A stretch of 21,210 bases of DNA from a phage, in assembly GCA_012690745.1 (NCBI GenBank), contig GCA_012690745.1_4086.5; one strand, written 5' to 3'. The position numbers and the translations under genes were made by a program. Positions within the stretch are counted from its first letter, which is position 1. Each line of letters opens with the position of its first letter. Shown piece after piece: positions 1,701 through 21,210 of the stretch. The notes beneath the pieces are model-generated. The model saw nothing but the letters and a program-made list of their open reading frames with translations. It made no database searches and was not told where the DNA came from.

Positions 1701-1727
1701 AGGTTGGCTTATGCCAACCTTTTTTTA
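1701..1727 (+). terminator. intrinsic terminator (variant of the repeated hairpin module)
   Basis: aggttggc-ttat-gccaacct followed by a 6-T run, immediately after the sigma factor stop codon. Confidence 0.7.
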
Positions 1728-1747
1728 TGGGATGAAGTAAAAGTTTG

Positions 1748-1756
1748 TGATATAAT
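1748..1756 (+). promoter_or_regulatory. extended -10 promoter (TGaTATAAT)
   Basis: tgaTATAAT at 1748..1756 with no good -35; predicted start near 1763 would drive the ORF-free segment downstream. Confidence 0.45.
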
Positions 1757-1762
1757 TATCTT

Positions 1763-2250
1763 GTACAATTCTGTTGGCATGATATTCATGTACCTGATCC
1801 ACTCGAAAACGTAGAGGGCAGTTGAGCAGTCCGACAGTGCGAACAGCAAAAGAAACCCGTTAGATGTGGGCATAGTTTGAACCCCTCACGGCAATGCGGC
1901 TGTATAAAGAACCACGTTAGGATAGCTGGTGGTTCCTTGATAGACATATAAGGATAACACCTTACGAATTATCTAAGGGAGAGTTATCGAATTTTGTACA
2001 GGAAAGTTGCGTCCAAAATTTGAGTACTCACATTAAGTATTTGATTGCATAGATACTTAATGAAGATACACTATGTTTAAAAGTGTAGACCGTCATATGA
2101 AACTGAAGTAGAGAGAAACAGGATGACCCGCTTTCGCACTCGTTATGAGTAATCTTCAATGCAATAGCTCTGATACCATCAGCGTCAAATTTCCCTCCTT
2201 GTGGGGGGAAGAAAAATCCCTTCCTCAAATCCCGTCAATATTAAAAGTCC
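1763..2250 (+). ncRNA. candidate structured non-coding RNA (family unknown)
   Basis: No + strand ORF longer than about 11 codons. Visibly more GC-rich than flanks (1800..1960). Perfect inverted repeats at 1909..1935 (gaaccac/gtggttc), 2031..2062 (cattaagtat/atacttaatg), 2191..2210 (ttccctcc/ggggggaa). Bounded by promoters on both sides. Confidence 0.3.
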
Positions 2251-2279
2251 TTGACAGTTATTGATCATTCGCGTAGAAT
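2251..2279 (+). promoter_or_regulatory. sigma70-type promoter TTGACA-17-TAGAAT
   Basis: TTGACA 2251..2256, 17-nt spacer, TAGAAT 2274..2279; upstream of the 2344..3569 operon. Confidence 0.6.
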
Positions 2280-4074: not shown

Positions 4075-4102
4075 TTGACATAAGATATCAGTACTGTATA
4101 AT
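4075..4102 (+). promoter_or_regulatory. sigma70-type promoter TTGACA-16-TATAAT
   Basis: TTGACA 4075..4080, spacer ending gtactg, TATAAT 4097..4102; same spacer-end motif as promoters at 8385 and 18736. Confidence 0.6.
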
Positions 4103-4147
4103 GTTTATATCAAACGAAATCCACTTTAACAAATGATAGGAAATATT

Positions 4148-8168: not shown

Positions 8169-8401
8169 TACTAAGTTTTGTTGTTGCACTATTGTTTATG
8201 TTCTATCCTACACTAGTGGCATTAGCCACTAGACGAACGATGGTAGATCTCACTACTGTATTCTTGCTAAACGTGGCATTAGTACTGGTGTCTATTATCA
8301 TTCCAGTGAGCTTTACAGTTATTGATATTATTTCGGTATTACTCTTCGTGTTAAGTTATCTTATGCTTATTGAAGAAACAAATGTTGACAAACGTTCGTA
8401 G
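8159..8401 (+). CDS. small integral membrane protein
   Basis: AAGGTG upstream of ATG; almost entirely hydrophobic (two predicted TM helices). Confidence 0.6.
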   Translation: MYLVLSFVVALLFMFYPTLVALATRRTMVDLTTVFLLNVALVLVSIIIPVSFTVIDIISVLLFVLSYLMLIEETNVDKRS

Positions 8402-8412
8402 TACTGTATAAT
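8385..8412 (+). promoter_or_regulatory. sigma70-type promoter TTGACA-16-TATAAT
   Basis: TTGACA 8385..8390, spacer ending gtactg, TATAAT 8407..8412; overlaps the 3' end of the preceding gene. Confidence 0.6.
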
Positions 8413-8458
8413 GGTTCCTGTAGTCTGAAACTTAACACTTAAACTTGAGGTAAAAAAT

Positions 8459-9968: not shown

Positions 9969-10160
9969 ATGTTGATTTATCAAAGTGATAATATTCGTGT
10001 TATGCAGCATCCCTACTTACAAATCTTTGATGTGCAGCAGTATATGGAAGGTGATGACCCAAGAACCTATGGTCGTAAGTATGATTACTTCACTGTAAAG
10101 CAGTGTAAAAATATTAACGAAGTACGACAATTAGTTCAAGAACTTCAAAACAAAGGTTGA
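9969..10160 (+). CDS. hypothetical protein
   Basis: Track start 9915 overlaps upstream gene; in-frame ATG 9969 has AAGGA 8 nt upstream. The TGA stop lies inside the downstream terminator hairpin. Confidence 0.55.
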   Translation: MLIYQSDNIRVMQHPYLQIFDVQQYMEGDDPRTYGRKYDYFTVKQCKNINEVRQLVQELQNKG

Positions 10161-10186
10161 CTTCGGTCAGCCTTTTTTGTTATAAT
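10152..10186 (+). promoter_or_regulatory. terminator hairpin fused to promoter (repeated module, copy A)
   Basis: ggttgac-ttcg-gtcagcc stem-loop (10155..10172) plus T6; TTGACT inside the stem (10157..10162), 18-nt spacer, TATAAT 10181..10186. Confidence 0.7.
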
Positions 10187-10214
10187 TCTCTTAATAAATT
10201 AGAGGATTTTAATT

Positions 10215-14920: not shown

Positions 14921-14954
14921 AAGGTTGACTTCGGTCAGCCTTTTTTTGTAAATA
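14921..14954 (+). promoter_or_regulatory. terminator hairpin fused to promoter (copy D)
   Basis: ggttgac-ttcg-gtcagcc (14923..14940) plus T7; TTGACT 14925..14930; weak -10 TAAATA 14949..14954. Confidence 0.65.
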
Positions 14955-14983
14955 CAAAAGAGGAATTAAGAAGAGGGATTACA

Positions 14984-15235
14984 ATGAAAAAATATATTAT
15001 ATTTGGAATTGTATTATTTTCCAGTACTGCTTATGGTGCAGATTATCATTGCTCCGTAGCAAGGCAGGATTTCAGAAATGGGGAGTTCTATACTACCTCA
15101 TACACAAAAGGAATAATACACGACACCGACAGAACTATTGGATTTAATGCGTTTGACAACAAAGATTCATATACTTCAGGTATACTATCTGAGCGTAAGA
15201 CTGATGTAATGGGAATAGAAAAAGAGTTCCGGTGA
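14984..15235 (+). CDS. putative secreted protein
   Basis: Track ORF 14909 reads through the hairpin; in-frame ATG 14984 has GAGGG 6 nt upstream; MKKYIIFGIVLFSSTAYGADY signal peptide. Confidence 0.6.
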   Translation: MKKYIIFGIVLFSSTAYGADYHCSVARQDFRNGEFYTTSYTKGIIHDTDRTIGFNAFDNKDSYTSGILSERKTDVMGIEKEFR

Positions 15236-15245
15236 TTCAGTAGCA

Positions 15246-15569
15246 ATGTGTAATGACATTGAAAGTACTAAAACAATTTATTATAATAATGAACGTAACT
15301 ATCGTTTTCATAATTTAACCACAAATAAAAGTTTACTATTTTACAATTGTAAAGAAGTAATACTCCCATCAGACAATAGCTGTACTCCAACTAATCAACC
15401 CCCAGCACAATGTAATACTCCCTCTGAACCTGATAAAAATAAAAAAGACAAAGATAAAGATAAAAAAGAAGACAAAAAACCTTTAAAAGATAAAAAGAAA
15501 GATAAAAAACATAATCCGTTTAAAAATAATAAACAAGCACAACCCGATATGACGTGTAAAATAAAATAA
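15246..15569 (+). CDS. hypothetical protein with Lys/Asp-rich low-complexity tail
   Basis: Only a weak SD (GGTGA); C-terminal DKNKKDKDKDKKEDKKPLKDKKKDKKHNP encoded by a simple aaagat-type DNA repeat (about 15430..15510). Confidence 0.4.
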   Translation: MCNDIESTKTIYYNNERNYRFHNLTTNKSLLFYNCKEVILPSDNSCTPTNQPPAQCNTPSEPDKNKKDKDKDKKEDKKPLKDKKKDKKHNPFKNNKQAQPDMTCKIK

Positions 15570-18735: not shown

Positions 18736-18763
18736 TTGACAAACACATTCTGTACTGTATAAT
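18736..18763 (+). promoter_or_regulatory. sigma70-type promoter TTGACA-16-TATAAT
   Basis: TTGACA 18736..18741, spacer ending gtactg, TATAAT 18758..18763; followed by a 7-bp leader hairpin gggatga/tcatccc at 18776..18794. Confidence 0.6.
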
Positions 18764-18812
18764 GCTTATCAAGGGGGGATGAACTTCTCATCCCTACAAT
18801 CGAGGAACTACC

Positions 18813-20914: not shown

Positions 20915-21210
20915 ATGCCAGCTAAAAAAACAACTGAACAATTCATTAAAGACGCAAAAGAAAAAAGAACTGACATTGATTTTGATTATAGTAAAGTTAA
21001 TTATATTAATTCTTTTACAAAAGTAACTATTATTGATCCTGAATTTGGTGAGTTTGATATTACACCCAATCACTTTTTAAGTGGTAGTGGGCATCCTATC
21101 CGTGGTGGTTCATCTAAAAAAACAACAGAACAATTTATTAAAGAAGCAAAAGAAAAGAGATCTGACATTGATTTTGATTATAGCAAAGTTAATTATATTA
21201 ATACTAAAAC
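20915..21210 (+). CDS. hypothetical protein with tandemly repeated ~30-aa module (partial, continues past window)
   Basis: GGAG upstream of ATG 20915; KKTTEQFIKDAKEKRTDIDFDYSKVNYIN recurs as KKTTEQFIKEAKEKRSDIDFDYSKVNYIN 64 codons later; open at window end. Confidence 0.6.
   Translation, partial: MPAKKTTEQFIKDAKEKRTDIDFDYSKVNYINSFTKVTIIDPEFGEFDITPNHFLSGSGHPIRGGSSKKTTEQFIKEAKEKRSDIDFDYSKVNYINTK
20921..21202 (+). repeat. direct repeat, two ~90-bp copies (20921..21010 and 21113..21202) within the partial ORF
   Basis: The two copies are about 90% identical at DNA level, period 192 bp, in frame. Confidence 0.8.

Follow-up and report, generated by a model that had tools for sequence, protein, structure and literature searches.

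A predicted family of large, pseudoknotted RNAs in giant phages and integrative islands of Enterobacterales

Introduction

What occupies the gap between a gene for an RpoD-like sigma factor, the open reading frame (ORF) of which ends at position 1693, and the next convincing plus-strand gene, which begins at position 2344, in a 21,210-nucleotide (nt) stretch of jumbo phage DNA (assembly GCA_012690745.1, contig GCA_012690745.1_4086.5; hereafter the window)? An initial annotation, made from the letters alone, proposed that most of this gap encodes a large structured RNA with a transcription unit of its own. Comparison with homologous loci, presented here, shows an independently promoted gene for what is predicted to be a folded RNA that belongs to a new family and whose sequence is under constraint from base pairing and from near-invariant junctions. 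On balance, we favor the view that positions 1763–2190 of the plus strand are an independent gene for a noncoding RNA (ncRNA) of ~430 nt, one of four anciently diverged paralogues, which would act in trans as a folded RNA. It is rare for a new class of large, complexly folded bacterial or phage RNA to emerge, and the known ones (RNase P, the self-splicing introns, transfer-messenger RNA (tmRNA) and, more recently, OLE, GOLLD, ROOL and HEARO) each opened a field.

Judging from nucleotide identity, the window is part of an Asteriusvirus (121Q/G17-like) jumbo myovirus: in BLASTN comparisons, bases 1650–2400 are 99.9% identical to the genomes of Escherichia phages vB_EcoM_G17 and Sharanji and 99.6% identical to that of 121Q. 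In the G17 and 121Q records, too, a gap separates the sigma-factor gene from the next gene. As the initial annotation noted, the segment is richer in G+C than its surroundings (0.435–0.445 over positions 1701–2000 in 200-nt windows, versus 0.30–0.36 in the flanks). Its further claim that no plus-strand ORF exceeds about 11 codons does not hold: two mechanical ORFs, of 50 amino acids (aa; positions 1662–1814, starting inside the sigma-factor gene) and 39 aa (positions 2145–2264), overlap the segment at its edges, neither of them conserved.

Results

A fold supported by compensatory changes

Members of the family were collected from IMG/VR, metagenome and species-representative genome collections using patterns of conserved blocks together with a profile hidden Markov model, which yielded more than 70 distinct copies in four groups; about 7 of the 15 pattern matches in the genome collection were without profile support, and about ten chance matches were estimated for the pattern. 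The structure was tested on a plain MAFFT alignment of 60 distinct copies that had not been fitted to any structure. A model of 94 pairs in 19 helices was derived by exhaustively searching for consecutive columns that are compatible and covary, and was then evaluated on this alignment. Standard pairs fill 91.7% of the cells of the model pairs, compared to 35–43% when the 3′ partners are slid by 1–3 columns. Both sides change in 69 of the 94 model pairs (28–38 in the slid controls), and the covariation score is 0.439 for the model versus 0.06–0.09 for the slid versions. None of 500 column shuffles matched any of the five observed measures. Furthermore, RNAalifold, which does not predict pseudoknots, independently recovered helices Hc, Hd, He, Hf, Hj, Hc′, beta and Hl, with compensatory changes in 34 of its 50 pairs. 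G-U pairs are frequent, with UG in 48 of the 60 copies at alignment columns 530/541 and GU in 31 of the 60 at columns 605/628; because these would be A-C mismatches on the opposite strand, the plus strand is the one predicted to fold. The elements of the model, in window coordinates, are as follows.

1763–2190, plus strand: structured RNA core of ~430 nt; nhmmer match at 1760–2190 (E = 3e-100), with covariation-supported structure over the range
1771–1837, plus strand: pseudoknot PK-A, in which the 5′ strand 1771–1777 pairs with 1831–1837 in the loop of Hc (1826–1828/1838–1840); strands 88–94% paired, and helices 1, 2 and 5 together 88–100% paired, with 8 of 10 pairs changing on both sides
1794–1821, plus strand: hairpin Hb (1794–1796/1819–1821, 1799–1800/1817–1818 and 1802–1804/1814–1816) with the conserved loop GAAAAYGUA; helix 3, 93% paired, both sides changed in 6 of 8 pairs
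1843–1903, plus strand: helix Hd (1843–1847/1899–1903), enclosing He (1857–1860/1888–1891) and an inner hairpin (1863–1870/1882–1887); helices 6–8, Hd being 100% paired, with 4 of 5 pairs covarying, and also found by RNAalifold
1909–1935, plus strand: hairpin Hf (1909–1915/1929–1935); helices 9–10, with changes on both sides in 7 of 7 pairs, likewise found by RNAalifold
1949–1964, plus strand: hairpin Hh (1949–1953/1960–1964); helix 11, flanked by the near-invariant GAUAGACAUAUAAGG and UAAGGGAG
2031–2062, plus strand: hairpin Hj (2031–2042/2051–2062); helix 13, 12 of 12 pairs changing on both sides
2044–2165, plus strand: pseudoknot PK-B, in which the Hj loop 2044–2050 (AUUGCAU) pairs with 2159–2165 (AUGCAAU); helix 14, 99.8% paired, 7 of 7 pairs changing on both sides
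2092–2158, plus strand: 3′ pseudoknot domain made of alpha, beta, Hc′ and Hl; helices 15–18, 96–100% paired, 13 of 18 pairs covarying
2172–2188, plus strand: 3′ terminal hairpin (2172–2176/2182–2186, with 4 of 5 pairs formed in the window copy); helix 19, 79% paired, including the proximal repeat GCGTCAA at 2182–2188

Within the 3′ pseudoknot domain, helix alpha (2092–2096/2123–2127) and helix beta (2111–2115/2131–2135), which cross each other, are both 100% paired, and Hc′ (2104–2108/2154–2158), which crosses alpha and encloses beta and hairpin Hl (2138–2141/2147–2150), is 98% paired. This domain is the most conserved block of the RNA and is also present in a distant subfamily (see below). 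The comparison thus supports a predicted architecture of ~19 helices with three to four pseudoknots, near-invariant purine-rich junctions and variable peripheral hairpins. The same pattern is apparent among the four copies of the 121Q genome, in which long, nearly invariant blocks are separated by hairpins that differ in sequence while remaining complementary. Moreover, a peripheral hairpin (GUACAAUAUAG...CCAAAAUUU) lies in the central domain in most copies, inside Hl in one paralogue group and at both places in the island copies; such use of two alternative insertion points is typical of RNAs constrained by three-dimensional or tertiary contacts.

All the inverted repeats named in the initial annotation correspond to elements of this unit, namely, Hf (1909–1935), Hj (2031–2062), Hh (1949–1964) and the G-run hairpin at 2191–2210. 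The first three are helices that covary across the homologues. Abundant covariation and the lack of a shared protein frame are the opposite of what had been named there as grounds for abandoning the RNA.

No conserved reading frame and no match to known RNA families

No reading frame is conserved among the homologues, the median lengths of stop-free stretches being 50 aa on the plus strand and 66 aa on the minus strand. The two minus-strand ORFs of the window are open in only 20–23 of the 60 homologues, and gap lengths in the alignment are not multiples of three. A protein-coding or pseudogene origin of the segment was rejected on these grounds, namely, the lack of a conserved frame and indels that ignore triplet phase.

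The Rfam 15 models, which include GOLLD, ROOL, HEARO, OLE, raiA, RNase P, group I and group II introns, tmRNA, 6S and pRNA, gave no match at the gathering threshold across the whole window. At E ≤ 10, positions 1600–2450 produced only weak sub-threshold matches to unrelated small families, with the stronger ones falling on the terminator, and a search with seven diverse family members at E ≤ 0.5 returned a single terminator artefact. ARAGORN found no transfer RNA (tRNA) or tmRNA gene in the window. No group I or group II intron model matched even at E ≤ 10.

The suggestion that the segment might be an intron remnant did not survive. Apart from the lack of a group I or group II model match, no gene is interrupted: the sigma-factor stop codon at 1693 is followed by a terminator at 1702–1726, the next gene has its own promoter, and the four copies in the 121Q genome are all intergenic. 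A group I-like arrangement of P3–P7 with P8 was rejected as well, as only CCG (3 nt) separates the 3′ strands of alpha and beta (2127–2131), with no hairpin between them. RNase P was also considered. A P4-like pairing of CGAAA (1805–1809) with UUUCG (2132–2136) does not covary, UUUCG changing to UUCCG or UUCUG while CGAAAA stays fixed; the CUUUC segment instead pairs locally with the adjacent GAGAG in helix beta (helix 17), and this pairing covaries. A resemblance to RNase P in short collinear sequences (such as ACAGA..ACCCG..CUU) was likewise rejected, with no model match even at E ≤ 10.

Four ncRNAs have been detected by RNA sequencing in a relative, Pseudomonas phage PA5oct, one of them 451 nt long, with ncRNA001 and ncRNA002 being abundant (PMC7318152). 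With filters off, the family profile found no match in the 7–24 kb region of PA5oct, which includes ncRNA001 (1264–1499 of that stretch) and ncRNA002 (14952–15402); thus, the PA5oct ncRNAs are different RNAs. In the full-text literature on jumbo-phage and structured RNAs, including the Sharanji and CBB papers, the RNA is not described, and only its promoter class is. As far as these tools can tell, the family is new: Rfam 15 has no model of it, it is not annotated, and the searchable literature does not describe it. By its general features, that is, a length above 400 nt, multiple covarying helices, no reading frame and occurrence in phages and islands only, it belongs among the large structured ncRNAs of mobile elements.

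The RNA gene has a conserved promoter and a conserved 3′ module

Two further elements flank the core.

1728–1756, plus strand: promoter of the RNA gene, with a −35-like TGGGATG (1728–1734), a 16-nt spacer, TG (1748–1749) and TATAAT (1751–1756)
2191–2240, plus strand: conserved 3′ module, with a C-run/G-run hairpin (2191–2198/2203–2210), a YCUCNAC-like stretch and the distal repeat CCGTCAA (2232–2238)

The extended −10 element had been recognized in the initial annotation, and its position predicts a transcription start at ~1763. A sequence of the form TGRRAY-N15–19-TAYAMT lies directly upstream of the RNA in 54 of the 60 copies, TGAAACG (18 copies) and TGAAACA (12 copies) being the commonest heptamers. 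At least five of the six TATAAT positions are kept in 47 of the 60 copies, and 39 of these 47 also have the TG of an extended −10 element. The island copies carry the same type of promoter. The conserved promoter, the terminators found in many copies and the compensatory changes together support the original proposal of a large structured RNA that forms a separate transcription unit.

In phages CBB and GAP32, a "divergent RpoD-like" TGAAACG promoter has been described, 11 of the 18 examples of which precede a block of DNA-synthesis genes (PMC5259590). The promoter of the RNA gene is of the same class as this CBB promoter (PMC5259590). Because this class precedes DNA-synthesis genes in CBB and GAP32, the RNAs are probably made in the DNA-synthesis temporal class.

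Many copies end in an intrinsic terminator, the stem of which itself covaries; a strict scan detected it in 18 of 56 copies. The window copy (paralogue A) and paralogue B are without a terminator, and in the window copy none lies between the core and the 3′ module. The C-run/G-run hairpin is located downstream of the core in 53 of the 56 copies, and an A+T-rich stretch also follows the RNA. The distal repeat is a 7–10-nt repeat of the sequence that ends the 3′ hairpin of the RNA, and in independent lineages the proximal repeat and the distal one have changed in concert (CGACAA/CGACAA, TTGTCAG/TTGTCAG and ACGTCA/ACGTCA), with both being ACGAAG in the distant subfamily. Both could pair with the 5′ strand GAYGM, the fifth position of which the distal repeat does not track. 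In relatives, further conserved hairpins follow the 3′ module, one with the loop GAACGNAGUGA and another overlapping a TTGAC-type promoter. The functional unit is longer than the segment originally delimited, with conserved modules past 2190 that extend ~300 nt beyond the core in relatives.

Four ancient paralogues at stable positions

The whole 121Q genome holds exactly four copies, all on the plus strand and all intergenic (nhmmer E = 1e-82 to 1e-103).

121Q 90.2 kb, plus strand: copy A, the copy of this window
121Q 192.8 kb, plus strand: copy B
121Q 247.5 kb, plus strand: copy D
121Q 326.6 kb, plus strand: copy C, located between minus-strand genes, for endonuclease VII on one side and a small ORF followed by the baseplate hub on the other

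The four are 55–112 kb apart, and no second copy was found within the window. Their mutual identity is 58–66% over the aligned extended regions and ~70–80% over the best-conserved BLAST segments. Each paralogue group keeps the same neighboring protein clusters in contigs of different genera, which indicates that the paralogues are old and positionally stable rather than recently mobile. The genes on both sides of copy C are on the minus strand in 121Q and in three further contigs, four genera in all, and this copy is thus not a leader. A separate stretch of the 121Q genome, 135,194–137,161, has ~2 kb without an annotated coding sequence and is not homologous to the RNA family.

In a phage collection of 50,697 records, the RNA was found only in Rak2-like jumbo phages (62–71 records), in which BLASTN located four to five distinct matches per genome. 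Unannotated regions of Erwinia, Serratia, Yersinia, Cronobacter, Pectobacterium, Salmonella and Klebsiella jumbo phages contain matches of ~70% identity. The distant subfamily is found on other phage contigs, which encode a Dda-like helicase and a portal protein; its 5′ half has diverged, the 3′ pseudoknot domain and the G-run module are nearly identical to those of the main family, and the TGTTATAAT promoter is kept.

At these loci, dozens of GenBank records have either spurious "hypothetical protein" calls or no annotation. In several automatically annotated relatives, the RNA genes are overlain by two to five "hypothetical proteins", and in UE-S1 parts of two paralogues are labeled as repeat_region. 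An annotated 51-aa product, gp516, on the minus strand of 121Q lies inside paralogue D and is probably spurious.

The same cassette in integrative islands

Outside phages, copies were identified in bacterial assemblies of Serratia fonticola (a complete chromosome), Serratia sp., Enterobacter chinensis, Silvania, Buttiauxella and others, and in 2 of 5,426 complete Escherichia coli genomes; the plasmids searched gave no match. The RNA is present once per island, in small integrative islands of Enterobacterales (Serratia, Enterobacter, Buttiauxella, Silvania and E. coli). At most of these loci, its neighbor is an integrase of the large serine or the tyrosine recombinase type. The RNA typically lies immediately downstream of the integrase in the same orientation, although the two are convergent in the Serratia fonticola-type islands; at some loci, it lies instead at the very edge of the island, beside host genes. 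The commonest island consists of an integrase, the RNA cassette, a convergent CI-like S24 repressor, a Ner-like gene, genes for membrane and LprI-like proteins, an invertase and variable cargo, whereas the layout is different in the Serratia fonticola-type islands and in the E. coli island. Islands are inserted, among other places, beside rof/tilS, hofB-like, thiM and ffs. At the E. coli locus, PGAP annotated nothing. In one island type, a 13-bp perfect palindrome (CCCTATAAATATC..GATATTTATAGGG) is located just upstream of the RNA promoter.

A tblastn comparison of the ORFs in the sampled island neighborhoods (±6 kb) with 121Q gave no match. No replication gene was found in the same neighborhoods, and some contain ParB/RepB-like genes. 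The presence of the RNA in virulent 350-kb phages and in islands that, in the regions sampled, otherwise share nothing with them points to an unrecognized link between giant phages and chromosomal mobile elements.

Boundaries of the unit in the window

Two signals delimit the RNA unit.

1702–1726, plus strand: intrinsic terminator of the sigma-factor gene, read from the sequence as a stem (1702–1708/1713–1719) followed by a T-run (1720–1726)
2251–2279, plus strand: promoter of the downstream gene block, TTGACA-17-TAGAAT, with 11 of 12 consensus matches

The terminator, annotated as such in G17 and UE-S1, is the 5′ boundary of the unit, and the promoter, named in the initial annotation and found as described, is the 3′ boundary, outside the RNA core.

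The terminator belongs to a family of units within the window (AAAGGTTGACTTCGGTCAGCCTTTTTT, family D1) with eight copies, at 1694–1744, 10147–10197, 13389, 13572, 14915, 16000, 20289 and 20833, most of which are immediately followed by a TATAAT-type −10 element. The early region of the window is divided into many short units of this terminator-plus-promoter kind. A second promoter family (D3), TTGACA...GTACTGTATAAT, occurs at 4075–4108, 8385–8418 and 18736–18769 and is distinct from the TGAAACG-type promoter that precedes the RNA genes. At the end of the window, a 95-nt direct repeat (family D2; 20919–21013 and 21111–21205) has copies that are 92% identical and 192 nt apart, and may be a repeated coding segment.

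Discussion

What might the RNA do?

We propose that the product of the locus would act as an RNA rather than through DNA or a peptide, that it would be made together with the DNA-synthesis gene class, in the middle phase of infection, and that it may work with a partner supplied by the host. The host partner is suggested because the RNA cassette is the only feature common to virulent jumbo phages and to islands with two unrelated integrase types. With moderate to low confidence, the leading candidate mechanism is that of a trans-acting RNA, either the core of a ribonucleoprotein or a ribozyme.

Several observations weigh against this interpretation. Conserved hairpin-forming modules continue past the terminators, which is awkward for an RNA that simply ends there. 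The ends and the stability of the transcript are predicted from sequence signals, and the trans mechanism and the host partner are candidates at this stage. The conserved positions, the long-lived diverged paralogues and the promoter of the DNA-synthesis class fit a role in cis, bound to the locus, for instance, in origin priming, equally well. Finally, folding-energy comparison, which the initial annotation had recommended as a check, gave ordinary values for the single sequence (z = −1.26 for the plus strand and −1.18 for the minus strand), so that thermodynamics alone would not have revealed more than chance; the evidence for the fold is comparative instead.

The main rival is an R-loop origin primer. 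In such a replication-origin cassette, a structured pre-primer transcribed from the middle-class promoter would form a persistent R-loop near the G-run and prime the leading strand; the four to five copies would be the phage origins, and the single copy of an island would allow phage or host enzymes to replicate it. The dispersal of four to five copies at conserved positions over a genome of ~350 kb would fit such a role, and the TGAAACG promoter class precedes DNA-synthesis genes in CBB. The conserved C-run/G-run element and the A+T-rich stretch that follow the RNA would suit an origin, as would a gene repertoire in 121Q that includes UvsW-like, Dda-like, RNase H and T4-type replisome genes; origins of phage T4 use middle-mode promoters. 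The lack of a replication gene in the sampled island neighborhoods would also fit, alongside the ParB/RepB-like genes present in some. However, in many copies the RNA is separated from the G-run module by an intrinsic terminator, known primer RNAs are far simpler than the multi-pseudoknot core with its near-invariant junctions, and no direct link ties the RNA to DNA synthesis. GC skew does not switch at any of the four 121Q copies, but this is a weak test and uninformative about origins because the skew here follows gene orientation, that is, the direction of transcription. Taken together, we regard an origin primer as rather unlikely.

Many copies share a layout of promoter, structured RNA, terminator and downstream genes, which raises the question of whether the RNA is a cis-acting leader, that is, a very large riboswitch, attenuator or processive-antitermination element controlling its own terminator, with the CGUCAR repeats as alternative pairings. 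The two repeats could indeed pair alternately with the same 5′ strand, yet when the fifth position of that strand changes, the distal one does not change with it. Furthermore, paralogue C lies among minus-strand genes in four genera, with no plus-strand gene before the convergent terminator, paralogues A and B have no terminator to control, and downstream gene blocks have strong promoters of their own, such as that at 2251–2279. A leader function therefore appears doubtful.

The concerted change of the two repeats in independent lineages could also reflect a self-processing ribozyme, which would be a special case of the trans-acting folded RNA favored here. The RNA would cleave or ligate at YCGUCAR and thereby trim or excise the G-run module, and the two sites would stay identical because one internal guide recognizes both. 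Size, pseudoknots and invariant junctions are reminiscent of large ribozymes; against this, no ribozyme model matches, and the mature RNA of the terminator-bearing copies would be without the distal site. We find it hard to give this possibility much weight.

That the locus is not an RNA gene at all but a decayed protein gene, a protein-binding DNA repeat or a small mobile DNA element is largely refuted and very improbable: mechanical ORFs of 39–66 aa exist on both strands, and automatic annotation has in some cases put "hypothetical proteins" or a "repeat_region" at this locus, but no frame is conserved, the indels are out of triplet phase, compensatory changes together with strand-specific G-U pairs point to selection acting on a single plus-sense strand in folded form, paralogue positions are conserved across genera, and a promoter and a terminator flank the unit.

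Returning to a folded RNA acting in trans or as a primer, a broader scenario, possible if speculative, is that the whole cassette, comprising the TGAAACG-type promoter, the pseudoknotted RNA, the G-run hairpin and the hairpin with the GAACGNAGUGA loop, is a module switched on by the middle-phase transcription of the jumbo phage. Enterobacterial islands would have captured it so as to fire upon infection, which would make them satellites or sentinels of giant phages, and the RNA would be either a new large ribozyme or an RNA-primed origin. Regardless of the mechanism, the element is a multi-copy family with many pseudoknots spread across giant phages and chromosomal islands, and is broader than a single window suggested. 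Its biology is testable, given the unusually strong comparative support, the easily grown E. coli phages that carry it (121Q, PBECO4, G17 and phAPEC6) and the four paralogues, which can be deleted singly.

Comparison with known systems

The closest parallels are GOLLD and ROOL, which, like this family, exceed 400 nt, have many helices and pseudoknots with covariation, are carried by phages and other mobile elements, form a unit of their own with no associated protein gene and are of unknown function. They differ in that the present RNAs match neither model in sequence or structure and are found in Enterobacterales hosts and their jumbo myoviruses, as four to five diverged paralogues per phage genome, with a fixed G-run module downstream.

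RNase P RNA is of similar size and has A-rich conserved junctions and long-range helices, but the present family has multiple copies per genome, no model match and no covariation of the P4-like pairing. Group I and group II introns can likewise be large pseudoknotted phage RNAs, and an HNH endonuclease gene lies 0.6 kb downstream in the window; however, the RNA is located between a terminator and a promoter rather than in a gene, and no intron model matches. None of the other three paralogues is directly followed by an HNH gene, although paralogue D has an HNH-family ORF (gp513) ~0.9 kb upstream.

ColE1 RNA II and the T4 origins oriF and oriG resemble the present unit in being promoter-driven, untranslated RNAs of ~0.5 kb followed by a G-rich element, with several per genome in T4 and a promoter of the DNA-synthesis class, but in the present family many copies have terminators before the G-run, the architecture is far more complex and the sequence is far more conserved. 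In the HK022 put sites and the boxB-boxA leaders of rrn operons, too, a structured RNA follows a promoter and precedes terminators, with a hairpin followed by a C/U-rich single-stranded box. The hairpin and the YCUCNAC-AAAYC stretch of the 3′ module presumably recall such leaders only loosely: the similarity to boxA is weak, nothing lies downstream of paralogue C to be antiterminated, and the present RNA is five to six times larger.

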